A stretch of DNA of 64,000 bases from Desulfatiglandales bacterium. GTDB lineage: Bacteria; Desulfobacterota; DSM-4660; Desulfatiglandales; Desulfatiglandaceae. The stretch covers positions 3,296,001 to 3,360,000 of the forward strand of contig OY759599.1 in the NCBI GenBank assembly GCA_963662465.1, written 5' to 3'. Positions 1,167 through 55,445 of this stretch are shown here, in pieces; position 1 is the stretch's first letter, and each line of letters starts with the position of its first letter. A program made the translations under genes and the position numbers. Under the pieces are notes generated by a model, which saw nothing but the letters and a program-made list of their open reading frames with translations, ran no database searches and was not told the origin of the DNA.

Positions 1167-3393
1167 GTGCGACGTGATGTCGCGTAAGTAGCTGTTTTGT
1201 ATATCAATATAAACCATATAACAAAACCCTGTTTTCTGCAACAGGTATTCTACCGGGACATGCGTCCGGAGTAATCCGGGGGTGTGAAGCTCTCGGGACA
1301 ATGAAGCCCGCGGAATTTTCCGGGAGAGGAAACCGTGAGGGGACCTCAACTCTGCAAGCATCATGCGGTAAGGGAGCTAGAATTGAGCAGTACGGTTAAC
1401 ACATGTGAATCGCTGCAGCGTCGTCACGAGAACAAGCCTAAGATGCTGAAAGGCTTGGACCAAAAAAGGTACGTGGCCAGGAACGGAGGCTGCGAACTCC
1501 TCCGTCGCGGATGTTGTGCCACCGGCGTAAAGGCGGAACCTAACCTGCTCTGGTACTTACGCGGAACATGGTAAGCCCGTAATCCTCCCCACGGGGAAAG
1601 CGAACCGCAAGGTGAGCCCATGGGGTTGCGGGTAAAGGATGTCAGAAAAAGCGAATGCCTCGTTGTAATGATGGGGATACGGATTGAAGGTGTAACTACC
1701 TACATGATCCGGCTCGAAAGAGAGCAGACTTCTGACCGGTGTTCCATTGCGAGATAATCTGTCGAATCTTTAAACAGGGGAAAGCAAATGACGGTGGCCG
1801 TTTTGGCGACTGGTGCACCTTTGGACGGAACAAACTGGTGGAAATCCATAAACTGGAAAACCGTCGGCGAGCACGTTAGAAGACTGCAGGTGCGTATCGC
1901 AAAGGCTGTGAAGGAAAAGCGATGGGGAAAAGTCAAGGTGATACAGTGGCTTTTGACTCATTCGTTTTATGCCAAGTTGTTGGCTATCAAGCGCGTTACT
2001 TCCAACCGGGGTAAACGCACACCGGGAGTGGATAAAGTCATATGGTCCACCCACATTGACAAAATGCAGGCGGTAAACGACCTGCGCCGAAGAGCCTACC
2101 GACCCAAACCGCTGCGCCGAATTTACATACCCAAGAAAAACGGCAAGAAACGCCCATTGGGCATTCCCACAATGAAGGACAGAGCCATGCAGGCGTTGTA
2201 CAAATTGGCGCTTGATCCGGTGGCGGAAACCACCGCCGATCCGAACTCTTACGGGTTCAGACCCTATCGGGGATGTGCGGATGCCATCGGTCAGTGTTTT
2301 ATTTCTCTGGCCAAGCGCCACTCACCCGTATGGATTCTGGAGGGAGATATAAAGGCCTGTTTTGATGAAATCAGCCATCAATGGATGCTCGAAAATATCC
2401 CTATGGATAAACGGACGCTTCAGAAATGGCTGAAATCCGGTTATGTGGAAGGAGGCAAGCTCTATCCAACTTACAGAGGAACCCCGCAAGGCGGGATTAT
2501 CTCTCCAACATTGGCTAATATGGTCCTGGATGGTCTGGAAGCGGCAGCCAAAAGTACCGCCCCGATAAGAATCCAGGGCAATATACGGTCCAAGATAAAC
2601 GTAATCCGTTACGCTGATGATTTCATCATCACCGGGAATTCCAGAGAGATGCTAAATGAGATCAAGCTGGAAATTGAAGCATTTATGGAGCGAAGAGGAC
2701 TTTCGCTTTCAGCGGAAAAGACGTTGATCACAAGGATAGAAGAAGGATTTGATTTTCTCGGACAGAATCCACGCAAATACCAGGGGAAGCTCTTGATAAA
2801 GCCCTCTCGCAAAAACGTGAAAGCCTTTTTAGGCAATATCCGGCAAACAATCCGAAAGCATGCGGCATCAAGAGCCGACATTCTGATTAAAGTACTCAAT
2901 CCCAAAATCAGGGGGTGGGCCAATTACCACAGGCATGTGGTTTCCGGTAGAACTTTCGGGCTTGTAGATCACCGTATCTACAGCTATATTTGGCAATGGA
3001 TGAGGAGGAAACATTCGGGCAAGAGTAAGAGTTGGCTGGTGGATAAATACTGGTCAAAAGGATCTCGCCCGTGGTCCTTTTCAGCGGTGATCAAGGACGG
3101 CTATGCGAAATCCGCCAGAATTGAACTTGAGAAAGCTTACGACGTCAAGATAAAACGCCATGTCAAAATTCGAGGGGATGCGAACCCCTTCGATCCGAAA
3201 TATGAACAATATTTCAGGAAACGATATGCCCAACGCAGTCAGCAGAAGGCAGACAGGCGTAAAGAGCATAAAACGTCACAACCGGGTAGCCCCGAAAGGG
3301 CTTGCCTTTGGAATGCTTGAGCCGTGTGCGTTTAACGGCGCACGCACGGTTCTTAGAGGGCTGGGGGATGGTGACATCCCCTGGCTACTCGAC
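1167..3393 (+). mobile_element. Group II intron A1 (CL1-type IIB), intact
   Basis: Starts GTGCG; D5 gagccgtgtgcg...cgcacggttc; D6 ends ctactcgAC; contains the RT ORF. Confidence 0.95.
1788..3320 (+). CDS. ltrA: Group II intron reverse transcriptase/maturase, no En domain
   Basis: INW..V..LQ.RIAKA N-terminus, RPLGIP, GTPQGG, RYADD, NPKIRGWANY maturase motif; 510 aa. Confidence 0.95.
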   Translation: MTVAVLATGAPLDGTNWWKSINWKTVGEHVRRLQVRIAKAVKEKRWGKVKVIQWLLTHSFYAKLLAIKRVTSNRGKRTPGVDKVIWSTHIDKMQAVNDLRRRAYRPKPLRRIYIPKKNGKKRPLGIPTMKDRAMQALYKLALDPVAETTADPNSYGFRPYRGCADAIGQCFISLAKRHSPVWILEGDIKACFDEISHQWMLENIPMDKRTLQKWLKSGYVEGGKLYPTYRGTPQGGIISPTLANMVLDGLEAAAKSTAPIRIQGNIRSKINVIRYADDFIITGNSREMLNEIKLEIEAFMERRGLSLSAEKTLITRIEEGFDFLGQNPRKYQGKLLIKPSRKNVKAFLGNIRQTIRKHAASRADILIKVLNPKIRGWANYHRHVVSGRTFGLVDHRIYSYIWQWMRRKHSGKSKSWLVDKYWSKGSRPWSFSAVIKDGYAKSARIELEKAYDVKIKRHVKIRGDANPFDPKYEQYFRKRYAQRSQQKADRRKEHKTSQPGSPERACLWNA

Positions 3394-35756: not shown

Positions 35757-37981
35757 GTGCGACGTGATGTCGCGTAAGTAGCTGTTTTGTATATCAATAT
35801 AAACCATATAACAAAACCCTGTTTTCTGCAACAGGTATTCTACCGGGACATGCGTCCGGAGTAATCCGGGGGTGTGAAGCTCTCGGGACAATGAAGCCCG
35901 CGGAATTTTCCGGGAGAGGAAACCGTGAGGGGACCTCAACTCTGCAAGCATCATGCGGTAAGGGAGCTAGAATTGAGCAGTACGGTTAACACATGTGAAT
36001 CGCTGCAGCGTCGTCACGAGAACAAGCCTAAGATGCTGAAAGGCTTGGACCAAAAGGTACGTGGCCAGGAACGGAGGCTGCGAACTCCTCCGTCGCGGAT
36101 GTTGTGCCACCGGCGTAAAGGCGGAACCTAACCTGCTCTGGTACTTACGCGGAACATGGTAAGCCCGTAATCCTCCCCACGGGGAAAGCGAACCGCAAGG
36201 TGAGCCCATGGGGTTGCGGGTAAAGGATGTCAGAAAAAGCGAATGCCTCGTTGTAATGATGGGGATACGGATTGAAGGTGTAACTACCTACATGATCCGG
36301 CTCGAAAGAGAGCAGACTTCTGACCGGTGTTCCATTGCGAGATAATCTGTCGAATCTTTAAACAGGGGAAAGCAAATGACGGTGGCCGTTTTGGCGACTG
36401 GTGCACCTTTGGACGGAACAAACTGGTGGAAATCCATAAACTGGAAAACCGTCGGCGAGCACGTTAGAAGACTGCAGGTGCGTATCGCAAAGGCTGTGAA
36501 GGAAAAGCGATGGGGAAAAGTCAAGGTGATACAGTGGCTTTTGACTCATTCGTTTTATGCCAAGTTGTTGGCTATCAAGCGCGTTACTTCCAACCGGGGT
36601 AAACGCACACCGGGAGTGGATAAAGTCATATGGTCCACCCACATTGACAAAATGCAGGCGGTAAACGACCTGCGCCGAAGAGCCTACCGACCCAAACCGC
36701 TGCGCCGAATTTACATACCCAAGAAAAACGGCAAGAAACGCCCATTGGGCATTCCCACAATGAAGGACAGAGCCATGCAGGCGTTGTACAAATTGGCGCT
36801 TGATCCGGTGGCGGAAACCACCGCCGATCCGAACTCTTACGGGTTCAGACCCTATCGGGGATGTGCGGATGCCATCGGTCAGTGTTTTATTTCTCTGGCC
36901 AAGCGCCACTCACCCGTATGGATTCTGGAGGGAGATATAAAGGCCTGTTTTGATGAAATCAGCCATCAATGGATGCTCGAAAATATCCCTATGGATAAAC
37001 GGACGCTTCAGAAATGGCTGAAATCCGGTTATGTGGAAGGAGGCAAGCTCTATCCAACTTACAGAGGAACCCCGCAAGGCGGGATTATCTCTCCAACATT
37101 GGCTAATATGGTCCTGGATGGTCTGGAAGCGGCAGCCAAAAGTACCGCCCCGATAAGAATCCAGGGCAATATACGGTCCAAGATAAACGTAATCCGTTAC
37201 GCTGATGATTTCATCATCACCGGGAATTCCAGAGAGATGCTAAATGAGATCAAGCTGGAAATTGAAGCATTTATGGAGCGAAGAGGACTTTCGCTTTCAG
37301 CGGAAAAGACGTTGATCACAAGGATAGAAGAAGGATTTGATTTTCTCGGACAGAATCCACGCAAATACCAGGGGAAGCTCTTGATAAAGCCCTCTCGCAA
37401 AAACGTGAAAGCCTTTTTAGGCAATATCCGGCAAACAATCCGAAAGCATGCGGCATCAAGAGCCGACATTCTGATTAAAGTACTCAATCCCAAAATCAGG
37501 GGGTGGGCCAATTACCACAGGCATGTGGTTTCCGGTAGAACTTTCGGGCTTGTAGATCACCGTATCTACAGCTATATTTGGCAATGGATGAGGAGGAAAC
37601 ATTCGGGCAAGAGTAAGAGTTGGCTGGTGGATAAATACTGGTCAAAAGGATCTCGCCCGTGGTCCTTTTCAGCGGTGATCAAGGACGGCTATGCGAAATC
37701 CGCCAGAATTGAACTTGAGAAAGCTTACGACGTCAAGATAAAACGCCATGTCAAAATTCGAGGGGATGCGAACCCCTTCGATCCGAAATATGAACAATAT
37801 TTCAGGAAACGATATGCCCAACGCAGTCAGCAGAAGGCAGACAGGCGTAAAGAGCATAAAACGTCACAACCGGGTAGCCCCGAAAGGGCTTGCCTTTGGA
37901 ATGCTTGAGCCGTGTGCGTTTAACGGCGCACGCACGGTTCTTAGAGGGCTGGGGGATGGTGACATCCCCTGGCTACTCGAC
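35757..37981 (+). mobile_element. Group II intron A3, intact
   Basis: Directly abuts A2; nearly identical to A1. Confidence 0.95.
36376..37908 (+). CDS. ltrA: Group II intron RT/maturase
   Basis: Same protein as 1788-3320. Confidence 0.95.
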   Translation: MTVAVLATGAPLDGTNWWKSINWKTVGEHVRRLQVRIAKAVKEKRWGKVKVIQWLLTHSFYAKLLAIKRVTSNRGKRTPGVDKVIWSTHIDKMQAVNDLRRRAYRPKPLRRIYIPKKNGKKRPLGIPTMKDRAMQALYKLALDPVAETTADPNSYGFRPYRGCADAIGQCFISLAKRHSPVWILEGDIKACFDEISHQWMLENIPMDKRTLQKWLKSGYVEGGKLYPTYRGTPQGGIISPTLANMVLDGLEAAAKSTAPIRIQGNIRSKINVIRYADDFIITGNSREMLNEIKLEIEAFMERRGLSLSAEKTLITRIEEGFDFLGQNPRKYQGKLLIKPSRKNVKAFLGNIRQTIRKHAASRADILIKVLNPKIRGWANYHRHVVSGRTFGLVDHRIYSYIWQWMRRKHSGKSKSWLVDKYWSKGSRPWSFSAVIKDGYAKSARIELEKAYDVKIKRHVKIRGDANPFDPKYEQYFRKRYAQRSQQKADRRKEHKTSQPGSPERACLWNA

Positions 37982-41767: not shown

Positions 41768-43626
41768 ATGACGGTGGCCGTTCTGGCGACTGGTGCACCT
41801 TTGGACGGAACAAACTGGTGGAAATCCATAAACTGGAAAACCGCCGGGGAGCATGTTAGAAGACTGCAGGTGCGTATCGCAAAGGCTGTGAAGGAAAAGC
41901 GATGGGGAAAAGTCAAGGTGATACAGTGGCTTTTGACTCATTCGTTTTATGCCAAGTTGTTGGCTATCAAGCGCGTTACTTCCAACCGGGGTAAACGCAC
42001 ACCGGGAGTGGATAAAGTCATATGGTCCACCCACATTGACAAAATGCAAGCGGTAAACGACCTGCGCCGAAGAGCCTACCGACCCAAACCGCTGCGCCGA
42101 ATTTACATACCCAAGAAAAACGGCAAGAAACGCCCATTGGGCATTCCCACAATGAAGGACAGAGCCATGCAGGCATTGTACAAATTGGCGCTTGATCCGG
42201 TGGCGGAAACCACCGCCGATCCGAACTCTTACGGGTTCAGACCCTATCGGGGATGTGCAGATGCCATCGGTCAGTGTTTTATTTCTCTGGCCAAGCGCTA
42301 CTCACCCGTATGGATTCTGGAGGGAGATATAAAGGCCTGTTTTGATGAAATCAGCCATCAGTGGATACTCGAAAATATCCCGATGGATAAACGGACGCTT
42401 CAGAAATGGCTGAAAGCCGGGTATGTAGAAGGAGGCAAGCTCTATCCGACATACAGAGGAACCCCGCAAGGCGGCTTATGCAAAGCTTTGCATAACCCGC
42501 CTTATGCCAAGTTGCCGATTATGCAAAGTAAACCGCTAAAGCTACCAGATTTCCAACACGTTCACTGAGTTTACTTTGCATAATATCACGGGTACCTCAA
42601 ACTTGAAATCCAATTAAACGATGCAGCATCCTTGGTTTATTTTGGATAAAATGATCTGGTTTTTTCCGACAAACGATTTTGTGAGCTTTTCGCTCAGTCA
42701 TCATTAGCAAAGATTATGCTAAGTAAATCAAAAAGAAACCCTTGAATTACAATGCGTTTTATGGCTTACTTTGCATAATTACTTTCTTTGCATAAGGCGG
42801 GATTATCTCTCCAACATTGGCTAATATGGTCCTGGATGGTCTGGAAGCGGCAGCCAAAAGCACCGCCCCGATAAGAATTCAGGGAAATATACGGTCCAAG
42901 ATAAACGTAATCCGCTACGCTGATGATTTTATCATCACCGGGAATTCCAGAGAGATGCTAAATGAGATCAAGCTGGAAATTGAAGCATTTATGGAGCGAA
43001 GAGGTCTTTCGCTTTCAGCGGAAAAGACGTTGATCACAAGGATAGAAGAAGGATTTGATTTTCTCGGACAAAGTTCACGCAAATACGGAGGAAAACTTTT
43101 GATAAAGCCCTCTCGCAAAAACGTGAAAGCCTTTTTAGGCAATATCCGGAAAACAATCCGAAAGCATGCGGCATCAAGAGCCGACATTCTGATTAAAGTA
43201 CTCAATCCCAAAATCAGGGGGTGGGCCAATTACCACAGGCATGTGGTTTCCGGTAGAACTTTCGGGCTTGTAGATCACCGTATCTACAGCTATATTTGGC
43301 AATGGATGAGGAGGAAACATTCGGGCAAGAGTAAGAGTTGGCTGGTGGATAAATACTGGTCAAAAGGATCTCGCCCGTGGTCCTTTTCAGCGGTGATCAA
43401 GGACGGCTATGCGAAATCCGCCAGAATTGAACTTGAGAAGGCTTACGACGTCAAGATAAAACGCCATGTCAAAATTCGAGGGGATGCGAACCCCTTCAAT
43501 CCGAAATATGAACAATATTTCAGGAAACGATATGCCCAACGCAGTCAGCAGAAGGCAGACAGGCGTAAAGAGCATAAAACGTCACAACCGGGTAGCCCCG
43601 AAAGGGCTTGCCTTTGGAATGCTTGA
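41768..43626 (+). pseudogene. ltrA: RT/maturase interrupted at PQGG
   Basis: Two halves match the intact RT. Confidence 0.9.
42476..42801. mobile_element. Non-coding element with dif/RIT-like sites, orientation 1
   Basis: ttatgcaaag/ctttgcataa arms flanking 6-bp spacers. Confidence 0.8.
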
Positions 43627-43737
43627 GCCGTGTGCGTTTAACGGCGCACGCACGGTTCTTAGAGGGCTGGGGGATGGCAACATCCCCTGGCTACTCGACC
43701 AGACCCGCTGGACAGCGGGGGAACTTAACGTCGAAAA

Positions 43738-44937
43738 TTGGTAGAAATAGGTAAAATCGCAGTGGAAACGACGATTCAGGGCATCTTTCTTCTTGGCTAT
43801 GCCCTCTATAATCAGACGCATTGTCTTCCGGAACATATTCGTGAGGCGGCTCATCGTCTGATGTCCTGCCGCACGTCCATTCTGGGGAGGCACGTCCAGG
43901 CATGTCCGGATGGTCACTTCCAGAGGGTCTGGTATAACTCGTGTAAACACCGTATGTGCCCACTCTGCGCCTTCACCCAGGTTGAGCGGTGGCTGGCAAA
44001 ACAAAAGGCCCGACTCCTGAGTGCCGAGCATTTCCACGTTATTTTCACCATCTCCGATGAATTGCATGACTTATGGCGGCTGAACCGTAAAGTCATGGCC
44101 AATCTGCTGTTCAAAAGCACGACCGAGACCCTTTCCGAACTCCTTGGAGACCCGAAGCATTTGGGGGCCAAAGTCGGCATCATTGCCTCGTTGCATACCT
44201 GGAGCCGAAAATTGGATTTTCATCCCCATTTGCATTGTTTGGTGACGGCCGGTGGTCTGTCCGCCGGCGAGTGGATTGCTTCATCAAAAACGTTTCTTCT
44301 GCCGTTTGGCATTGTCCGGGCGGTTTTTCGAGGAAAATATCTCCACTATTTGAGAAAAGCCCTTGCCCGTGAAGAACTGATTCTGCCCGAAGGCATGGGA
44401 CCGCAGCAGGCGCGAAACCTGTTTAATAAGTTGGGGCGCCGTAAGAAGTGGAACGTTAAACTCAAGGAGACCTATTCATACGGAGAAGGGGTCTTAATTT
44501 ACCTGGCCCGGTATCTGAGAGGCGGACCGATCTCAAATAAACGCATCTTCCGCATTGAAAACGGAAACGTCACCTTCAATTACGGTCGTGAGCGGATAAG
44601 ACTCATTACTTTGCCGATTCAAACCTTTATCGGCCGCTACCTGCAACACGTTCCCCTGGCGAATTCCATGATGGTGCGTTCATACGGCCTTTACCATCAC
44701 AACGCAAAAAAAGAACTGGCACGCTGCCGGGAAATACTGGGACAACCGGCACTTGAAGATACGGAATTTCTGGACTGGCAGAGTCTGTGGCAGCAGCGAA
44801 GCGACGAGCAACCGGATTGTTGCCCAGTTTGCGGGAAACGTCTTATTACGTTGAAAATAGTTGCACCGGTAAGAAAGTCAAAAAGTCTTCCGAGGTTCAA
44901 TAAGGACCCGGATACGGTATATGCACAGGCAGCGTAA
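43738..44937 (+). CDS. IS91-family transposase
   Basis: SCKHRMCPLC, HTW...FHPHLH, YLARY; ori-like caatctccatag at ~45120. Confidence 0.9.
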   Translation: MVEIGKIAVETTIQGIFLLGYALYNQTHCLPEHIREAAHRLMSCRTSILGRHVQACPDGHFQRVWYNSCKHRMCPLCAFTQVERWLAKQKARLLSAEHFHVIFTISDELHDLWRLNRKVMANLLFKSTTETLSELLGDPKHLGAKVGIIASLHTWSRKLDFHPHLHCLVTAGGLSAGEWIASSKTFLLPFGIVRAVFRGKYLHYLRKALAREELILPEGMGPQQARNLFNKLGRRKKWNVKLKETYSYGEGVLIYLARYLRGGPISNKRIFRIENGNVTFNYGRERIRLITLPIQTFIGRYLQHVPLANSMMVRSYGLYHHNAKKELARCREILGQPALEDTEFLDWQSLWQQRSDEQPDCCPVCGKRLITLKIVAPVRKSKSLPRFNKDPDTVYAQAA

Positions 44938-45178
44938 AACGATAATAAACATGAGCATATTCAAAAAGGCACTTGAATGGCGAGACGTTTGGTAAAGGGA
45001 TAAATAACGCGATATTTCAGGGTTTTTGACGGATCATGCAATTGAAAGCAGGAATTTTATCATCCTTAACCGGCCATGACGGGTTAAAAAAAGGTCACGC
45101 GACAGCTGAGAAGCTCCCTCAATCTCCATAGCCGATCTCCTGCTTCCGGCAAAGTATGTGCTGATGACCCGCAGCTCT

Positions 45179-45309
45179 GTCCAACACCCCGTTGAACTGG
45201 AAAACTGGTATTGGGAGATAAACCGAAATGCGTTGGTTCCTACGAAGTCACCAGCTGGAATGATAATATATTTTTTTGAACCCGTTTTCCAGTTAACTAA
45301 ACGATGGTT
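45179..45309 (+). repeat. attC-like site with degenerate R'
   Basis: gtccAAC...ttgaactggaaaac pairs with gttttccagttaa; R' reads gatggtt. Confidence 0.6.
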
Positions 45310-45650
45310 GCAGTGGAAACACGCCGTGCTATTCAAATCTACAAAATGCTATAAATGCAGTTGAAAGTGGTGGAACGATCAGGGTAGGTAGGGGCTCTTT
45401 TACTGAGCCATACACCCTAAACAATCAAAAATCCATAAACGTGTATGGCGGATGGAATGAGACCTTTTCAATTCAAAGCCCGAATACAACTTTCCTGGTA
45501 ACGCCAAGAGTATCCAACGGTGGATTGAAGTTCGGGTGCGTCACCTTTAAACCGTAAGGCTTTTTAGTTGCCGTCGTCTAAAGACGACTTTCGGCCATTA
45601 CATGTAGTTCGTTTGGGCAAAATGAGAAGATTTTGGGAATGTAAATTATA

Positions 45651-45887
45651 ATGAGTGAATTCGAGGTCATTGGAGAGATAGGTGCCGTCGAGTTGATCGC
45701 TAGAGGCCCTGGTATCCGCGACATAACCCGATTGAACCGTCAATACGGAAAGGGGAAATGGAGAAAACTTAAGGGATACGCCCCTGTTCGTTTAAGAACA
45801 GGCCGCGTCCGAATGGCTGAGCTTCATTGGTATGAGGCCCATGGAATTGGCAAAAGAGAAATGAAACGAAAGCGGTATGTGGAATAA
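45651..45887 (+). CDS. Small conserved-looking protein, putative toxin
   Basis: WRKLKG...AELHWYEAHGIG; first gene of a two-gene module. Confidence 0.6.
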   Translation: MSEFEVIGEIGAVELIARGPGIRDITRLNRQYGKGKWRKLKGYAPVRLRTGRVRMAELHWYEAHGIGKREMKRKRYVE

Positions 45888-45889
45888 TC

Positions 45890-46126
45890 ATGAAAGAATC
45901 CTTCGAAAAACAATATATATATGTCGTGTGTATCGATAACACCGACTATCCGACATCCCTAGAGCGGCACAAGATCTACAAAGTTGTTCCAGACGAGGAT
46001 GCAGCGGCAGATGGCGACATTAGAGTCATTGATGAAAGCGGAGAAGATTACCTCTACTCGTCAGAGAGGTTCGTTCCAATCCGTGTACCTGCTGCTGTAA
46101 GGAAATCGCTGGAGATGCTTGCTTAG
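45890..46126 (+). CDS. Small acidic protein, putative antitoxin
   Basis: VCIDN.DYP.SLE..KIY...IRVIDESGEDYLY. Confidence 0.6.
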   Translation: MKESFEKQYIYVVCIDNTDYPTSLERHKIYKVVPDEDAAADGDIRVIDESGEDYLYSSERFVPIRVPAAVRKSLEMLA

Positions 46127-46732
46127 AGAAAGGCCGGGCTTGCTAATTTGGCCGATCAGGTGCGCCAATGCTAAGTTCAGGTTTTCGCACTGGGGTAGCT
46201 TTGGCGTGGATTATCCGGTTCTATGCCTTTGTTACGTCTGTATGCGTAGGGATTCGAATGTACAAAGGAATAAGTCGTCATGTTTTATGAAAGTGAGGCC
46301 TAATTACTCCGTGATCCCGTGTAGTTAAAAACTTCGAGATCGGTTATGGGGATAGGGAGGAGCCTCACAGCTCCCCCCTCCCACACCACCGTACATACGG
46401 GTCCGTATACGGCGATTCGGCTGGTCAGAGCAGGCAAGGATAAAACAGGTTCCGCCCTACCGGGTTTTCCAGAATGCGACGTTATCGACCTTTCAGCTAC
46501 TGCTGCATTAGACCAATAAGTACACGTTCTTTGACAACCACAACCATTTACCCCTGCCATTCGGCAGGTGGCACCGTTCGGGCCTTCACCGGAGTGAGGC
46601 CTCCCTTTATTCAGGGCTCGTTTCTCCGGCTTAATATGCCCTCTGCTGACTCCCGTTACGCGGTGGGCTCCCCTTTCGGTTCGCTCACTCGTAGTTTCCG
46701 CAATCTGTCGAGTCCATTTGTTTGTGTTTCCC

Positions 46733-48738
46733 CGCATAAGTCTAAATGTTGTGGGGTTGTATAACCCATCAAAATTAAAAGGCGTTTTCGGTAAACAAGA
46801 ATGCATTATGAACCTTCATAACTTGAATCCAAGGTAAGTCAAATGTTTGGCCGTTGGCTAATTCAAAGGGACTTTTATGAGCATTTTTTGCGCCAGGTAA
46901 AAATGGGACAAAATTCCTGATAGTCGCATGTGCTCGAAAGAAAAGACTTGCCCATTTCTTATCTCGAAAACTCTCAATTTGTTTTAGTTTACGTTTGATT
47001 CCTTTTAAATAATTGTCAACAATGGAGGTTGTTTGTTTTATCCCATTTCTATTTTTATGAGAGGTATAATGAGTGGCATTTTCTTTTAATTCTACTACCC
47101 TCTTTTTTAGTAATGGATGAGAAAATGCATCGTCATCTAATGCCTTAATCTTTACTTCCAAGTTAACTTTAGATGTGGATGTTTTCAAAACTTTCTTAAA
47201 TTTTTTATAAAGCTTGTCCACTTCTTGGTCGGTACATTTTGATTCTTTTTGATATTTTGATAGTGCATCGTAGAAGTTTTTCAAACAATGACGATGGCAA
47301 TATCCGACCCAAATGTTATGGAATACGGTCTTGATAGCATTGGTTGAGGCTTTCCACTTATCTTTTGTTACACCAAGGATTTTGAAGTCGATTTTTTGCA
47401 AAAAATCCTCAAATGAACCGCACAGGTTTTCTTCATCAACATGATCAACATAATCGGAGTGCCATACTAATAAATTTTCAGGATCGACCATAACTACAGA
47501 ATAAGTTCTTAAATTTGGTTCTTTTTCAAAGCCCTCATCTTCCTGTAGATATCCTGAGCCTTTCACTCCTGCTCTTGTTAGTATTGTTGCAGGATGAAGT
47601 GTTCCTGCCCATCGATTCCAGTTCAAGATGGTCTGTTTGCTTTTGACACTTTTTTTGCCAATAATTTTAAGGCTTTCGATGGCTCCTTGAATGCTCGCAT
47701 TAAAACGGTACATATTCCGAAATACGTGCCCAATAATCTCTATACCAAAATTCTTTTCCCTTGGGAGAAAGCTGGGAACAAGAGAGAACTTTTGTTTGCA
47801 CTTCCGGCATTGTATCATGCGGATTGGGAATGTCTGTTGTTCTCCTCCATTCATTATTGTTTTTCGAGGATTCCCGCGGAAACCAGATAAAATATATTCT
47901 TTAGGTCCAGAACATGTTGAATTATGGCCTGTGTGGTGATCATATTTATCGAGTTTATCTAATACTTCAATGCGAAACTTCTTACTATCTTTTACGAGAG
48001 CATGATAGCTTTCGGTGTTATTATAAGGAAAGATATATGTTTGATTTCCTCGTTTAGAAACAAGGTCTTCCATTTTCTTTTTTACATTTTCGATTATGGA
48101 TTTATCAAAAGATTTTAACATCCCTATCTCAAATGCAATACTGATTGTACTATCACGACTTTTTACATTATTCAATTTTTTAGTAATATTACTTATCATT
48201 GAACGAATTGAATAAAAGATTCTAATTTTCTGTCGATCCCGTTGTGTTTTTGGAATGCTTTTTTTCCCTTTTATTGGCTTACAAATATCCCATAATTGAC
48301 TTATTAACCTACCAAGTTCATCAATAAGAGCAGACAATGTTACATAAAAATATTGCAATGATTGAAACATCTCCCTTTCATTGATCCATGATCTGATGGC
48401 ATTAATGCATTTCTCAATTTCAAAGAAAATCTCAGGATACTGTTTTGGATCGTAATAACATTGTCTTGCAAGTCTGTTTTGAGCTTTGTCCAACATTGTC
48501 AAAGCTCTCTTAATATTATTAATCATGTGCAACCTCTCTAATTTAACATAGACTGTTGCACTATGATTATGCACACTTATCAAAAAAAGTCCCTAACTTT
48601 TTTCCGCTAAGGCGAATTCAGGAAAAAATGTTTGGCCTCACGAAATGCGCTTTGATTAGGATATTGATTCTGAACCGTTTAACAGATGAAATAATTTCAA
48701 TATGTTAGAGTAAACCCCACAACATTTAGACTTATGCG
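46733..48738 (-). mobile_element. 2006-bp IS, copy 2
   Basis: Same TIRs as copy 1; 8-bp TSD tgtttccc. Confidence 0.9.
46775..48583 (-). CDS. Putative DDE transposase, 602 aa
   Basis: Near-identical to 6451-8259. Confidence 0.8.
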   Translation of the reverse strand: MISVHNHSATVYVKLERLHMINNIKRALTMLDKAQNRLARQCYYDPKQYPEIFFEIEKCINAIRSWINEREMFQSLQYFYVTLSALIDELGRLISQLWDICKPIKGKKSIPKTQRDRQKIRIFYSIRSMISNITKKLNNVKSRDSTISIAFEIGMLKSFDKSIIENVKKKMEDLVSKRGNQTYIFPYNNTESYHALVKDSKKFRIEVLDKLDKYDHHTGHNSTCSGPKEYILSGFRGNPRKTIMNGGEQQTFPIRMIQCRKCKQKFSLVPSFLPREKNFGIEIIGHVFRNMYRFNASIQGAIESLKIIGKKSVKSKQTILNWNRWAGTLHPATILTRAGVKGSGYLQEDEGFEKEPNLRTYSVVMVDPENLLVWHSDYVDHVDEENLCGSFEDFLQKIDFKILGVTKDKWKASTNAIKTVFHNIWVGYCHRHCLKNFYDALSKYQKESKCTDQEVDKLYKKFKKVLKTSTSKVNLEVKIKALDDDAFSHPLLKKRVVELKENATHYTSHKNRNGIKQTTSIVDNYLKGIKRKLKQIESFRDKKWASLFFRAHATIRNFVPFLPGAKNAHKSPFELANGQTFDLPWIQVMKVHNAFLFTENAF

Positions 48739-49186
48739 TGTTTCCCGACCAATAGGCCGGGCTCGTCAGGGCTATGACTCGAAATGTTCCTGACGCCAGG
48801 GTTTTGTTTTACCGGTTTTCCCTTATATTCCGGTAGATTTCAGTTGCAGTTCCCTACGAGACGCAACGGGCCTCCCGGGGTAAACACGTGTCTTTCCGCA
48901 CACGAGCGCCGACAACGTGCCTGGCCTATAGTAGTTAGAGGACTTTGTTCTGTGTTGCGGACTCGTCCCACCAGACCCGCCTCACTCGATTTCTGTTCGT
49001 CGCCCCGTGCGTTTGCGGTGCCCTGCCGCAGCAAGGCCACTGCCTCTCCAGGCCCGTTACCGGGTACCCGGTTGTGATACCGCTACACCCTTCGCCACTA
49101 CCTGGCTGGGTCTGGGACTTGCGTAAAATATCGGAAGCATGGTACATTGCGCGCACCCTTAAGAACACGTGCCGTGCCCGGCACAC

Positions 49187-49270
49187 AACCAAACGCTCCA
49201 CCAGACGCCTGACAGTCCTGCGGTCCTGGCAGGGGCCGAAGGAGGAGGCGCTGGTGAGCTTGTCGTTGGC
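49187..49270 (+). repeat. attC-like site with an intron at each end
   Basis: ggtt|AAC split by C1; GTTggc| followed by A5. Confidence 0.85.
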
Positions 49271-49903
49271 ATGCGACGTGATGTCGCGTAAGTAGCTGTT
49301 TTATATATTGATATAAACCATATAACAAAACCCTGTTTTCTGCAACAGGCATTCTACCGGGACATGCGTCCGGAGTAATCCGGGGGTGTGAAGCTCTCGG
49401 GACAATGAAGCCCGCGGAATTTTCCGGAAGAGGGAACCGTGAGGGGACCTCAACTCTGCAAGCATCATGCGGTGAGGGAGCTAGAATTGAGCAGTACGGT
49501 TAACACATGTGAATCGCTGCAGCGTCGTCACGAGAACAAGCCTAAGATGCTGAAAGGCTTGGACCAAAAGGTACGTGGCCAGGAACGGAGGCTGCGAACT
49601 CCTCCGTCGCAGATGTCGTGCCACCGGCGTAGGGGCGGAACCTAACCTGCTCGGGTACTTACGCGGAACATGGTAAGCCCGTAACCCTCCCCACGGGGAA
49701 AGCGAACCGCAAGGTGAGCCCATGGGGTTGCGGGTAAAGGATGTCAGAAAAAGCGAATGCCTCGTTGTAATGATGGGGATACGGATTGATGGTAATCACC
49801 GACATGATCCGGCTCGAAAGAGAGCAGACTTCTGACCGGTGTTCCATTGCGAGATAATCTGTAGAATCTTCAAACAGGGGAAAGCAGCCAGTGAAACGGG
49901 CGA

Positions 49904-51761
49904 ATGACGGTGGCCGTTTTGGCGACTGGTGCACCTTTGGACGGAACAAACTGGTGGAAATCCATAAACTGGAAAACCGCCGGGGAGCATGTTAGAAGAC
50001 TGCAGGTGCGTATCGCAAAGGCTGTGAAGGAAAAGCGATGGGGAAAAGTCAAGGTGATACAGTGGCTTTTGACTCATTCGTTTTATGCCAAGTTGTTGGC
50101 TATCAAGCGCGTTACTTCCAACCGGGGTAAACGCACACCGGGAGTGGATAAAGTCATATGGTCCACCCACATTGACAAAATGCAAGCGGTAAACGACCTG
50201 CGCCGAAGAGCCTACCGACCCAAACCGCTGCGCCGAATTTACATACCCAAGAAAAACGGCAAGAAACGCCCATTGGGCATTCCCACAATGAAGGACAGAG
50301 CCATGCAGGCATTGTACAAATTGGCGCTTGATCCGGTGGCGGAAACCACCGCCGATCCGAACTCTTACGGGTTCAGACCCTATCGGGGATGTGCGGATGC
50401 CATCGGTCAGTGTTTTATTTCTCTGGCCAAGCGCTACTCACCCGTATCGATTCTGGAGGGAGATATAAAGGCCTGTTTTGATGAAATCAGCCATCAATGG
50501 ATGCTCGAAAATATCCCGATGGATAAACGGACGCTTCAGAAATGGCTGAAAGCCGGGTATGTAGAAGGAGGCAAGCTCTATCCGACATACAGAGGAACCC
50601 CGCAAAGCGGGTTATGCAAAGCTTTGCATAACCCGCCTTATGCAAAGAAAGTAATTATGCAAAGTAAACCGTAAAAGCCATAATAATTCAAGAGATTCTT
50701 GTTGATTTGCTTAGCATAATCTCCACTTATGGTGAATGAGAAAAAGTTCAAAAAATCATTAGACAAAACAAAGGAGCTATTTTTATCCAAAACAAACGAA
50801 GAATGCTGCATCATTTACTTGGCTTTCAAGTCTGAAGTAGTCGTGATATTATGCAAAGTAAATTCAGTGCATATGCTTGAAATATTGCACCTTAACTGAT
50901 TTACTTTGCATAATCGTTAACTTTGCATAAGGCGGGATTATCTCTCCAACATTGGCTAATATGGTCCTGGATGGTCTGGAAGCGGCAGCCAAAAGCACCG
51001 CCCCGATAAGAATTCAGGGAAATATACGATCCAAAATAAACGTAATCCGCTACGCTGATGATTTTATCATCACCGGGAATTCCAGAGAGATGCTAAATGA
51101 GATCAAGCTGGAAATTGAAGCATTTATGGAGCGAAGAGGTCTTTCGCTTTCAGCGGAAAAGACGTTGATCACAAGGATAGAAGAAGGATTTGATTTTCTC
51201 GGACAAAGTTCACGCAAATACGGAGGAAAACTTTTGATAAAGCCCTCTCGCAAAAACGTGAAAGCCTTTTTAGGCAATATCCGGAAAACAATCCGAAAGC
51301 ATGCGGCATCAAGAGCCGACATTCTGATTAAAGTACTCAATCCCAAAATCAGGGGGTGGGCCAATTACCACAGGCATGTGGTTTCCGGTAGAACTTTCGG
51401 GCTTGTAGATCACCGTATCTACAGCTATATTTGGCAATGGATGAGGAGGAAACATTCGGGCAAGAGTAAGAGTTGGCTGGTGGATAAATACTGGTCAAAA
51501 GGATCTCGCCCGTGGTCCTTTTCAGCGGTGATCAAGGACGGCTATGCGAAATCCGCCAGAATTGAACTTGAGAAGGCTTACGACGTCAAGATAAAACGCC
51601 ATGTCAAAATTCGAGGGGATGCGAACCCCTTCGATCCGAAATATGAACAATATTTCAGGAAACGATATGCCCAACGCAGTCAGCAGAAGGCAGACAGGCG
51701 TAAAGAGCATAAAACGTCACAACCGGGTAGCCCCGAAAGGGCTTGCCTTTGGAATGCTTGA
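49904..51761 (+). pseudogene. ltrA: RT/maturase interrupted at the PQGG motif
   Basis: Two halves match the intact RT. Confidence 0.9.
50612..50936. mobile_element. Non-coding dif/RIT-like element, orientation 2
   Basis: Interior is a diverged reverse complement of the 42476 copy. Confidence 0.8.
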
Positions 51762-51979
51762 GCCGTGTGCGTTTAACGGCGCACGCACGGTTCTTAGAGG
51801 GCTGGGGGATGGCAACATCCCCTGGCTACTCGACTTGATGAGCTTCTGCAAAGGAGAAGGAAGATGTTAAGCGTGTATTTGCCGGTAATTGGAAACATCA
51901 ATAAGAGGCCTCGTATCTCGGACTTCGCTTCAGCGCGTTAGCCACTTGAAAATCAGCCTGTAAAGGAGAATGCTTAGCT

Positions 51980-52225
51980 ATGCCAGTAGTCTTCAGGTAC
52001 AAGGGATATCGTTTTTTCTTTTTCTCAAATGAAGGAGATCCACCTGAACCGATTCACATACATGTGCGACGTGGTGAGGCTACAGCAAAGTTCTGGATGT
52101 CACCTCAGATCAGCCTTGCGGAATCATACAATATGAACTCTTCTGAACTCCGCGAACTCATGCGAGTGGCTGAAAAAAACAGGAAACTCATTGAAAGGTA
52201 TTGGGATGAACACTTTAGCATTTAA
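51980..52225 (+). CDS. DUF4160-family protein (TA-like)
   Basis: GYRFFFFSNEGDPPEPIHIHV...AKFW. Confidence 0.8.
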   Translation: MPVVFRYKGYRFFFFSNEGDPPEPIHIHVRRGEATAKFWMSPQISLAESYNMNSSELRELMRVAEKNRKLIERYWDEHFSI

Positions 52226-52475
52226 ACCACGTGCCAAAAAAGTGACTTTTGACTCGGACAACATGTGGGTAGCACTCACCGATGGACGTCAGCTCGGTGT
52301 TCCTATTGCTTACTTCCCACGACTCCTCAATGCAACTGAAGCTCAAAGAGATGATTACATCATCAGCGGCGGAGGTAGTGGCCTGCATTGGGAGGAACTC
52401 GACGAGGACATTTCTGTTAAAGGCCTTTTATTGGGAATTGGTGATAGGACTCGACCTGACAGAAAGGCGGCATGA
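52206..52475 (+). CDS. DUF2442-family protein (TA-like)
   Basis: LTDGR.LGVP...PRLLNAT...GLHWEELDEDISV. Confidence 0.8.
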   Translation: MNTLAFKPRAKKVTFDSDNMWVALTDGRQLGVPIAYFPRLLNATEAQRDDYIISGGGSGLHWEELDEDISVKGLLLGIGDRTRPDRKAA

Positions 52476-52869
52476 CTGCTTTCAGCCACTTCCTTGCTAA
52501 CAGTAACTACAGCAGACAGTCAGAGCGCTGGCGTAGTTGGCAGATAAGCGTGATTCGAAATTGAAATTGATCTTTTTATTCCAAGATGCGCGAGCACTGG
52601 TCGTTGCTCAATATGGCGTTAATCGCAACCCGTCATTAGCATTTTTGAAGGGGAAAGAAACTGTTCAGCGCTCATTCGCCGATAACGGGGATAACGAATA
52701 AGGAAGAAGATCATTTTTTAAAGGCGAGTTGTGCAATGTCCATTTATTTCTATCATATTCCGCTGAATGTGCCAATAGCCATCGAATGTGAAAAAAATAA
52801 GTGATATGCTTATAGCTAGGTCCAAGCTTTTTTGTCATATAATTCCGTGGGGTTAAGAAAATCTATGAG

Positions 52870-52954
52870 CGCCAACCAAACGCTCCAGCGGACCCCTGAA
52901 AGTCTGTCGGTTCTAGCGGGGACCGGTGGAGGGGCCGCTGAACTTGTCGTTCGC
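52870..52954 (+). repeat. attC-like site (family 1), intron inserted in R'
   Basis: cgccAAC...cagcgg...ccgctg...GTTcgc. Confidence 0.85.
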
Positions 52955-53587
52955 GTGCGACGTGATGTCGCGTAAGTAGCTGTTTTATATATTGATATAA
53001 ACCATACAACAAAACCCTGTTTTCTGCAACAGGTATTCTACCGGGACATGCGTCCGGAGTAATCCGGGGGTGTGAAGCTCTCGGGACAATGAAGCCCGCG
53101 GAATTTTCCGGAAGAGGGAACCGTGAGGGGACCTCAACTCTGCAAGCATCATGCGGTGAGGGAGCTAGAATTGAGCAGTACGGTTAACACATGTGAATCG
53201 CTGCAGCGTCGTCACGAGAACAAGCCTAAGATGCTGAAAGGCTTGGACCAAAAGGTACGTGGCCAGGAACGGAGGCTGCGAACTCCTCCGTCGCAGATGT
53301 CGTGCCACCGGCGTAGGGGCGGAACCTAACCTGCTCGGGTACTTACGCGGAACATGGTAAGCCCGTAATCCTCCCCACGGGGAAAGCGAACCGCAAGGTG
53401 AGCCCATGGGGTTGCGGGTAGAGGATGTCAGAAAAAGCGAATGCTCCGTTGTAATGATGGGGATACGGATTGATGGTAATCACCGACATGATCCGGCTCG
53501 AAAGAGAGCAGACTTCTGACCGGTGTTCCATTGCGAGATAATCTGTAGAATCTTCAAACAGGGGAAAGCAGCCAGTGAAACGGGCGA

Positions 53588-55445
53588 ATGACGGTGGCCG
53601 TTCTGGCGACTGGTGCACCTTTGGACGGAACAAACTGGTGGAAATCCATAAACTGGAAAACCGCCGGGGAGCATGTTAGAAGACTGCAGGTGCGTATCGC
53701 AAAGGCTGTGAAGGAAAAGCGATGGGGAAAAGTCAAGGTGATACAGTGGCTTTTGACTCATTCGTTTTATGCCAAGTTGTTGGCTATCAAGCGCGTTACT
53801 TCCAACCGGGGTAAACGCACACCGGGAGTGGATAAAGTCATATGGTCCACCCACATTGACAAAATGCAAACGGTAAACGACCTGCGCCGAAGAGCCTACC
53901 GACCCAAACCGCTGCGCCGAATTTACATACCCAAGAAAAACGGCAAGAAACGCCCATTGGGCATTCCCACAATGAAGGACAGAGCCATGCAGGCATTGTA
54001 CAAATTGGCGCTTGATCCGGTAGCGGAAACCACCGCCGATCCGAACTCTTACGGGTTCAGACCCTATCGGGGATGTGCGGATGCCATCGGTCAGTGTTTT
54101 ATTTCTCTGGCCAAGCGCTACTCACCCGTATGGATTCTGGAGGGAGATATAAAGGCCTGTTTTGATGAAATCAGCCATCAATGGATGCTCGAAAATATCC
54201 CGATGGATAAACGGACGCTTCAGAAATGGCTGAAAGCCGGGTATGTAGAAGGAGGCAAGCTCTATCCGACATACAGAGGAACCCCGCAAGGCGGGTTATG
54301 CAAAGCTTTGCATAACCCGCCTTATGCAAAGAAAGTAATTATGCAAAGTAAACCGTAAAAGCCATAATAATTCAAGAGATTCTTGTTGATTTGCTTAGCA
54401 TAATCTCCACTTATGGTGAATGAGAAAAAGTTCAAAAAATCATTAGACAAAACAAAGGAGCTATTTTTATCCAAAACAAACGAAGAATGCTGCATCATTT
54501 ACTTGGCTTTCAAGTCTGAAGTAGTCGTGATATTATGCAAAGTAAATTCAGTGCATATGCTTGAAATATTGCACCTTAACTGATTTACTTTGCATAATCG
54601 TTAACTTTGCATAAGGCGGGATTATCTCTCCAACATTGGCTAATATGGTCCTGGATGGTCTGGAAGCGGCAGCCAAAAGCACCGCCCCGATAAGAATTCA
54701 GGGAAATATACGGTCCAAGATAAACGTAATCCGCTACGCTGATGATTTTATCATCACCGGGAATTCCAGAGAGATGCTAAATGAGATCAAGCTGGAAATT
54801 GAAGCATTTATGGAGCGAAGAGGTCTTTCGCTTTCAGCGGAAAAGACGTTGATCACAAGGATAGAAGAAGGATTTGATTTTCTCGGACAAAGTTCACGCA
54901 AATACGGAGGAAAACTTTTGATAAAGCCCTCTCGCAAAAACGTGAAAGCCTTTTTAGGCAATATCCGGAAAACAATCCGAAAGCATGCGGCATCAAGAGC
55001 CGACATTCTGATTAAAGTACTCAATCCCAAAATCAGGGGGTGGGCCAATTACCACAGGCATGTGGTTTCCGGTAGAACTTTCGGGCTTGTAGATCACCGT
55101 ATCTACAGCTATATTTGGCAATGGATGAGGAGGAAACATTCGGGCAAGAGTAAGAGTTGGCTGGTGGATAAATACTGGTCAAAAGGATCTCGCCCGTGGT
55201 CCTTTTCAGCGGTGATCAAGGACGGCTATGCGAAATCCGCCAGAATTGAACTTGAGAAGGCTTACGACGTCAAGATAAAACGCCATGTCAAAATTCGAGG
55301 GGATGCGAACCCCTTCGATCCGAAATATGAACAATATTTCAGGAAACGATATGCCCAACGCAGTCAGCAGAAGGCAGACAGGCGTAAAGAGCATAAAACG
55401 TCACAACCGGGTAGCCCCGAAAGGGCTTGCCTTTGGAATGCTTGA
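53588..55445 (+). pseudogene. ltrA: RT/maturase interrupted at PQGG
   Basis: Two halves match the intact RT. Confidence 0.9.
54296..54620. mobile_element. Non-coding dif/RIT-like element, orientation 2
   Basis: Perfect ggcggg direct repeats at 54290-54295 and 54615-54620. Confidence 0.8.

Follow-up and report, generated by a model that had tools for sequence, protein, structure and literature searches.

Three group II introns in a stretch of 64,000 nucleotides from a Desulfatiglandales bacterium (contig OY759599.1, positions 3,296,001 to 3,360,000; hereafter the window) raise the question of why the same short insert should cut a reverse transcriptase (RT) gene at the same codon each time. 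Rfam matches to group II intron domains surround each of these introns, here called A4, A5 and A6, and the insert interrupts the RT motif T-P-Q-G-G|I-I-S-P between the Gly-Gly codons and the next codon. A sequence-only reading of the window had proposed a non-autonomous tyrosine-recombinase element that might serve as a reversible on/off switch of the RT. From sequence comparisons, the insert is very probably a gene-less miniature derivative (a miniature inverted-repeat transposable element, MITE) of a recombinase-in-trio (RIT) transposon that homes to the two Gly codons of the RT. It is a parasite of a parasite and not a built-in switch. RIT elements are described as tyrosine-recombinase transposons with the genes ritA, ritB and ritC (Van Houdt 2012, PMC3414803; Smyshlyaev 2021, PMC8138268; Idola 2023, PMC10214605). 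The genes adjoin and overlap, in the order ritA-ritB-ritC.

The insert and its full-length relatives

The three inserts share one order, summarised as X-P-X'-a-7-a...a'-7-a'-X, where X is a GGCGGG-like hexamer, P is the 20-bp palindrome TTATGCAAAGCTTTGCATAA and a is its 10-bp half, TTATGCAAAG. P occurs at three sites of the window (42476, 50612 and 54296), with no match of any kind in 100 shuffled sequences, and a has 33 matches at one mismatch or fewer, against 6.4 expected, falling into three clusters. Read from the left, the RT codons ACC CCG CAA are followed by the left spacer X_L, P, the inner spacer X', a, 7 bp, a, about 45 bp, a' and about 130 bp; then come a, about 45 bp, a', 7 bp, a', the right spacer X_R and the codons ATT ATC TCT CCA. 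A second a lies 7 bp inside the first at each end, its inverted partner is about 55 bp deeper, and each element holds eight a sites besides the two within P.

In A4, X_L (42470..42475, plus strand) reads GGCGGC, Gly-Gly codons unlike the native GGCGGG of the intron family. The palindrome P (42476..42495, no strand), made of two back-to-back p arms, is followed by X' (42496..42501, plus), which reads CCCGCC, the reverse complement of Gly-Gly codons. The body (42502..42795, minus; type el4) has the terminal arm a1, subterminal inverted pairs a2/a2' at both ends and no open reading frame (ORF), and X_R (42796..42801, plus) holds the native target codons GGCGGG. The corresponding parts of A5, on the plus strand apart from the strandless palindrome, are X_L AGCGGG (50606..50611), P (50612..50631), X' CCCGCC (50632..50637), a body of type el5 (50638..50930) and X_R GGCGGG (50931..50936). 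Those of A6, with the same strands, are X_L GGCGGG (54290..54295), P (54296..54315), X' CCCGCC (54316..54321), the same body as in A5 (54322..54614) and X_R GGCGGG (54615..54620). This arrangement, found three times, is the one described in the sequence-only reading: the outer spacers are direct repeats, perfect in A6, and the inner CCCGCC is inverted relative to X_R.

Counted from P through X_R, the insert is 325 bp long in A5 and A6 and 326 bp in A4. Its removal in silico leaves ...ACC CCG CAA GGC GGG ATT ATC TCT..., as in the three intact RT/maturase copies of the window: a 510-aa ORF of the same intron family (1788..3320, plus), which served as the empty-site reference, and two further copies at 34151-35683 and 36376-37908. 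Because the intact copies read CCG CAA GGC GGG ATT ATC, the insertion corresponds to P through X_R and has duplicated the six bases of the Gly-Gly codons; the earlier expectation that excision would restore the ORF was sound. The alignment also bore out the suspected inversion, the A4 interior being the diverged reverse complement of that of A5 and A6 (80.7% identity over 305 bp). The bodies of A5 and A6 show no differences, and the other ~2.2 kb of the intron shows 16; as about 2.3 differences would be expected in the body, its identity is not significant as a sign of separate insertion.

The nature of the insert was revealed by its relatives. The exact 20-mer P was scanned in the genomes of 185,579 species and was found at 117 loci or more, spread over widely different bacteria; the counts from public genomes given hereafter hold among the matches listed. 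These come from Methylococcales, Desulfobacterota, Clostridia, Bacteroidota, Chloroflexota, Chlamydiota, Acidobacteriota, Bacillota and others. When the 248 ORFs of 130 aa or more at these loci were clustered, a family of 25 ORFs (330-446 aa) was found to begin about 100 bp from P, on the arm side. All five tested members match PF00589 and four of the five contain a SAM-like domain; the best NCBIfam scores of the family are to Xer models, yet below the cut-offs of those models.

Full-length relatives measure 3.47-3.5 kb, with the P/X/a layout of the window insert, mirror-image arms at the far end and three consecutive ORFs in each of the five that were fetched. In the relative L118 these ORFs encode 423, 341 and 355 aa and all three match PF00589; the gene order A-B-C is that of RIT1, a RIT element of the genome studied here. 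L118, L119 and L120 lie in RT genes at exactly the codons hit in the window. With the same ends and the same RT target, these relatives carry three consecutive tyrosine-recombinase genes, which identifies them as RIT elements. Compared between three RT-targeting elements from unrelated genomes, RitA shows 65-75% identity. RitA relatives of 419-446 aa have about 130 extra N-terminal residues, and the Pfam SAM-like domain lies at 131-211 in L118 and at 42-115 in L079; a RitA with two core-binding domains is given as a RIT feature in the relevant part of Smyshlyaev 2021 (PMC8138268).

Positions 2-156 of the A5 insert align with the left end of L118 (86.5% over 156 bp) and positions 194-330 with its right end (80.3% over 137 bp), while the ~3.19 kb middle of L118, including ritABC, is absent from the insert. 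The A5 insert thus corresponds to the two ends of L118 with the interior deleted, which makes it a MITE-like, non-autonomous offshoot of a RIT that targets the RT. The window inserts have the terminal inverted repeats and palindromic ends of RIT elements; at 325 bp and with no ORF they lack the three recombinase genes of an autonomous one. Their small size, inverted ends and copy number are those of a MITE, and mobilisation in trans is a supposition. The insert keeps what appear to be the cis sites of its parent (P, the inner spacer, a1 and the a2/a2' pairs at both ends) without ritA, ritB and ritC. In this respect the sequence-only reading had seen correctly, both in calling the insert a non-autonomous tyrosine-recombinase element specific to the RT motif and in guessing that its ends were RIT ends.

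Copies across the genome

The genome is complete, in one contig of 8.16 Mb, and BLAST found eight copies of the insert in it: A4, A5, A6, c292k, c6842k, c4989k, c3215k and c2365k, the last of them truncated. Wherever the left side is intact, as in seven copies, the insert follows CAA and lies before or within the GGN GGN of an RT gene. At least three unrelated RT genes carry copies, with the junctions TPQGG|IISP, TPQGG|VISP and TPQGG|IVSP. The RT flanks of c4989k (TPQGG|VISPVLSN) and c3215k (TPQGG|IVSPVLAN) cannot be aligned with the intron of the window, and their inserts are 98.4% and 97.8% identical to that of A4. The body types el4, el5 and that of c6842k are only 80-85% alike, and all occur in one intron family whose copies are 93-99% alike. 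Because three such body types share one intron family, and two other RT genes are hit besides, sequence comparison points to five or more separate insertion events at this one codon position in the genome.

A regular expression for the motif found 24 uninterrupted RT sites over the genome, five of them in the intron family of the window, so that six of its 11 members are interrupted. Each of the el4 and el5 body types is present in both orientations relative to the RT, as c292k against A5 and A6 (99.7%) and c2365k against A4. Whichever way the body points, P lies on the upstream side of the RT insertion. The two orientations may stem from inversion in place or from separate insertions. Outside this genome, a metagenome contig of 322 bases (L128:1481-1803, run X1) covers the el4-type body with eight other letters and one gap, so that one environmental sample at least holds a closely similar miniature element.

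Spacers and a proposed route of insertion

The spacers were examined at 47 P sites preceded by x-P-Q codons, 40 of them public and seven in this genome. Read on the opposite strand, the inner spacer encodes Gly-Gly in 38 of the 47, by a wide range of codon pairs, and it is no fixed part of the element. X_L and X' are exact reverse complements at 16 sites; where the two differ, 44 of the changes are at wobble positions and 21 elsewhere, whereas random change would put about one third at the wobble. Since its reverse complement mostly reads Gly-Gly and varies at the wobble, the inner spacer would once have been the Gly-Gly codons of a target, so that the site a'-X'-a would itself have served as a crossover site. 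The spacers appear to behave as crossover regions and to be inherited from earlier targets.

Single copies point the same way. Since X_L of A4 is the non-native GGCGGC and X_R the native GGCGGG, at least one A4 spacer was imported with the element. The inner spacer of c6842k is the reverse complement of GGGGGT, which is also the right spacer of c3215k; in the latter copy each outer spacer is one base off the GGGGGG of two related intact RT genes, and which spacer was imported is ambiguous. In another genome (G004; L130 and L137) the variant TGGTCG serves one copy as right spacer and the other as inner spacer, a pattern that fits spacer inheritance in either direction.

Among 109 P sites with enough flank, the 6-bp pair around P is a perfect inverted repeat in 43, and an a-like arm is found on one side only in 81, on both sides in none and on neither in 28. 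The arm beside the spacer is unlike the P half in 56 of the 81 one-armed loci, and the core site is for this reason probably heteromeric and dif-like. In 39 public cases P follows xPQG[GSA] without a gap, and in two, a tandem-P 'empty' element and a solo P, it immediately precedes the downstream half. We propose that p, a1 and a2 are probably three site types for the three recombinases.

From these observations a route of insertion can be drawn. Recombination would take place between the hybrid sites at the two ends, flank-X-p on the left and a1'-X-flank on the right, and release a free form, in which the complete core sites a1'-X-p and p'-X'-a1 would stand back to back, sharing the p-p' palindrome. 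Either dif-like core site (a1'-6 bp-p) would then recombine with the six bases of the target Gly-Gly codons, and the core site left unused would turn into the inner one. The product would be flank-X-P-X'-body-X-flank with a 6-bp duplication, for which reason excision would restore the ORF. The asymmetry of the spacer would set the polarity, so that P would always land upstream, and the body could enter either way round because either core site would be usable. Spacers would be swapped with targets, and the element would carry the Gly-Gly codons of earlier ones. This scheme explains the observed order, both orientations and the 'memory' of the spacers.

A variant of this route passes through single-stranded DNA: X-P-X', lengthened in the free form to two full core sites, would fold as a hairpin into one duplex core site, and one strand exchange followed by replication would give the same product, as for CTX-phage attP(+) or integron attC. 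A single-strand circle cut once at a'|X gives exactly the order seen, and places the imported spacer on the left in every case, which is its position in A4. The insert also folds strongly as single-stranded DNA in silico (z = -6.6), which is to be expected of any element rich in inverted repeats and does not argue for this pathway. Exonuclease-protected RIT DNA without circle junctions, and hairpin intermediates as a proposal, are reported in the part of Nielsen 2017 (PMC5737581) that deals with them. On the other hand, the base of the hairpin is often mismatched, given the 16 of 47 RT-type sites with X_L complementary to X', and the double-strand pathway yields the same product. We consider the single-strand route possible, though less likely than not.

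Some P sites show other arrangements. The 'empty' elements L012 (1495-1552, in an RT gene) and L088 (in another target) have the form target-X-P-X'-P-X-target, a 52-bp insert of arms and spacers only, and may be a minimal recombination substrate or a deletion product. Orphan palindromes occur among the 28 armless sites (L025, L028/L048, L094 and others). At L025 and L028/L048 the upstream target half stands on both sides of P, head to head, an arrangement that recombination between two inverted copies of the element would produce; in L094 a solo P separates the two RT halves.

Several points weigh against the RIT-derived reading or parts of it. The complete genome is without a cognate RIT trio, the best RitA match having 31-35% identity over part of the protein. 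The core sites and crossovers are deduced from sequence, and the target flanks have almost no similarity to the arms, so that the scheme leaves target recognition beyond the six bases unexplained. An imported outer spacer is unambiguous in one or two copies only (A4, perhaps A5). The apparent conservation of P is partly selection bias, since the search used an exact 20-mer and RIT1 of this genome has another palindrome. No excised or inverted form of c4989k was found in the contigs of the sequencing runs, which are blind to rare states. A full-text literature search found no published account of miniature RIT derivatives, RT targeting or the palindrome P, and the earlier RIT literature may cover part of this.

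The best RitA match in the genome belongs to RIT1, which is present in four copies outside the window (G000:C1 1582250-1585480, 2491221-2494450, 7140312-7143540 and 4393629-4401589). RIT1 has the same layout as the window inserts in other letters, with arms of the TTATGCCGC type, its own palindrome and the spacer CAGATG. All four copies interrupt an IS66-family transposase gene, the adjoining DDE_Tnp_IS66 match ending at profile position 258 of 284. Beyond the eight insert copies, exact a 10-mers occur 14 times in the genome, single and scattered. A P-like palindrome, TTATGCCGAGCTCGGCATAA, lies at G000:C1:4723182-4723201 beside a short tyrosine-recombinase fragment (Pfam positions 133-169), and the two may be the remnant of another RIT. 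As the complete genome is without a cognate RIT, the insert copies are probably stranded relics of one since lost or never arrived complete. Cross-mobilisation by the RIT elements of the genome (RIT1-3) may occur.

The missing recombinase also bears on the reversible switch of the sequence-only reading, by which the host or the intron would use excision or inversion to turn the RT off and on. The 6-bp direct repeats, from which precise excision would restore the ORF, and the near-identical copies in both orientations would suit such a device. The RT ORF is, however, interrupted in both orientations, so that inversion cannot restore it, and excision would need recombinases that are absent in cognate form. 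The two expression states and the recombinase at hand of a fimS-like invertible switch were thus not found. The expected flipped or excised states did not appear in the assembled contigs of the sequencing runs, which cannot reveal rare states. In addition, the same element family enters transposase genes of the IS66, IS91-like, IS21 and Mu types, as a parasite would, and a search of 40 related genomes, of which 10 share the genus, 14 the family and 16 the order, did not find the insert, so that it is not a conserved regulatory feature. A programmed switch is on these grounds very improbable. A contig of run X21 with an uninterrupted RT (CAA-GGCGGG-GTT-ATT) was considered as an empty site and rejected; at about 85% likeness it is a paralogue or orthologue.

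An element of the IMEX kind, exploiting chromosomal XerC/XerD with CATAA-N6-TTATG as a dif mimic, has an equally slight chance. In its favour, the arms are presumably similar to the inner part of dif arms, Xer models give the RIT recombinases their highest scores, though under the cut-offs, and the genome has two Xer-like genes (321 and 326 aa). Against this, the full-length relatives encode three recombinases of their own, the target consists of RT codons without dif-like arms, and full-arm CATAA-N6-TTATG sites in the genome are confined to the elements. All copies lie in RT genes, and none reflects integration at chromosomal dif via host XerCD. Chromosomal dif was also considered as the source of the sites, and no convincing dif-like site with these arms was found in the genome outside the elements, the terminus not being looked at further. 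Finally, a palindrome-associated element of the IS200/IS605 (HUH) type, inserting 3' of a short target in single-stranded DNA, would suit the subterminal hairpins, precise target choice and small size, and its probability is negligible: all 25 element-side cluster ORFs next to P are tyrosine recombinases and none is an HUH (Y1) enzyme, which rules out both HUH/IS200-type and DDE-type transposons, and neither the 6-bp duplication, which IS200/IS605 insertions do not make, nor the target-derived inner spacer fits.

Targets, host introns and known systems

RIT lineages with P reach beyond the RT. When the target-side ORFs next to P were examined by Pfam, RVT_1 fragments were found to break at profile positions 120-125 and Y2_Tnp near position 177 of 183; further families were IstB_IS21 and the Mu transposase C-terminal domain, and some target-side ORFs were ordinary genes or had no Pfam family. 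Conserved motifs of mobile-element enzymes are therefore a frequent, not the sole, target of RIT elements. A second RT-targeting lineage (L005, L009 and L049), whose arms differ and read TTATAGCAAT or TTATGAAAAG, enters the same RT motif through a spacer a few bases displaced, ACAAGG in place of GGNGGN. From its sequence, this looks like convergent targeting of one motif.

A joint reading may be offered tentatively, at somewhat less than even confidence. RITs and their miniatures would be widespread hyperparasitic tyrosine transposons, whose core a1'-6 bp-p, with two arm types, stands twice, inverted around a highly conserved P. The spacer would be swapped at each hop and keep a record of the last targets, lineages would have been retargeted to codons of RT, IS66, IS91-like, IS21 and Mu-type enzymes, and the three recombinases would correspond to p, a1 and a2.

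In the host intron A4, the 5' half of the RT gene (41768..42475, plus) holds RVT_N and RVT_1 profile positions 1-123, and the 3' half (42802..43626, plus) holds the remaining RVT_1 and the GIIM maturase domain. The intact 510-aa ORF contains every Pfam domain found on the split halves. Group II introns are unusually dense in the window: the Rfam matches number 26 (13 D1-D4 and 13 domain V/VI regions), lie on either strand and represent two subtypes or more (D1D4-7 and D1D4-3). Directly 3' of A4 lies an IS91-like transposase gene (43738-44937, plus; 399 aa) with Y2_Tnp and a Zn-binding domain. The Y2_Tnp gene family is, near its C-terminal motif, the target of other RIT lineages (L038 and L067).

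RIT elements are common in bacteria, yet little understood. The copies described here provide the whole of a minimal substrate, 325 bp long (52 bp in the 'empty' form of L012 and L088), together with a target known to the codon and natural variants of the spacer, which point to the place of strand exchange; the RIT mechanism is therefore directly testable. They also present a layered parasitism, in which a recombinase transposon disables the RT of more than half the copies of an intron family (6 of 11). The insertions in IS66, IS91-like and IS21 genes suggest a general way for RITs to spread without harm to the host.

The RIT family itself is known, and what is new here is the gene-less derivative, the genome-wide and cross-phylum statistics of the spacers and the stranded state. 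Like RIT elements, the window inserts are multicopy and have terminal inverted repeats and palindromic ends, homologous to those of full elements with A-B-C tyrosine recombinases; unlike them, they are gene-less. The relevant parts of the published accounts (PMC3414803, PMC8138268 and PMC10214605) give no attachment-site anatomy, target specificity ('NT') or non-autonomous derivatives. Target specificity and movement of RITs are given there as not tested, and transposition as not reproduced (Idola 2023, PMC10214605). Beyond what these parts contain, the target is here fixed to the codon and the spacers are apparently inherited from earlier targets.

As in bacterial MITEs, the insert is about 320 bp long, multicopy, without ORF and with inverted ends, and it derives from an autonomous element by internal deletion. 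It differs from the usual ones in that its parent is a tyrosine-recombinase element and not an insertion sequence with a DDE transposase, that the 6-bp repeat appears to be a crossover spacer and not the duplication of a staggered cut, and that one end has an extra palindrome and an inverted spacer. The coupling sequences of Tn916/CTnDOT-type elements come from the previous location. The part of PMC10214605 on SE and Tn554 elements states that they carry 6 bp from the donor site. The window inserts resemble all of these in that six adjoining bases apparently come from the previous location and the left and right spacers may differ, whereas Tn916/CTnDOT and Tn554/SE are not known to have an internal second core site or a conserved palindrome, or to target the enzyme codons of another mobile element.

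The dif/Xer core has inverted ...CATAA / TTATG... arms around 6 bp, and in the CTX phage and integron attC two inverted sites can fold into one duplex site. The insert shares with these systems the arms of CATAA/TTATG type around 6 bp and an inverted site pair foldable into one; unlike them, it belongs to elements that encode their own enzymes, its target has no dif-like arms, and its two sites abut as a perfect palindrome. IS1111/IS4321 elements target other mobile elements, at transposon ends or attC sites. The insert is like them a site-specific parasite of another mobile element, and differs in the class of its enzyme and in its target, a protein-coding motif of a catalytic domain.

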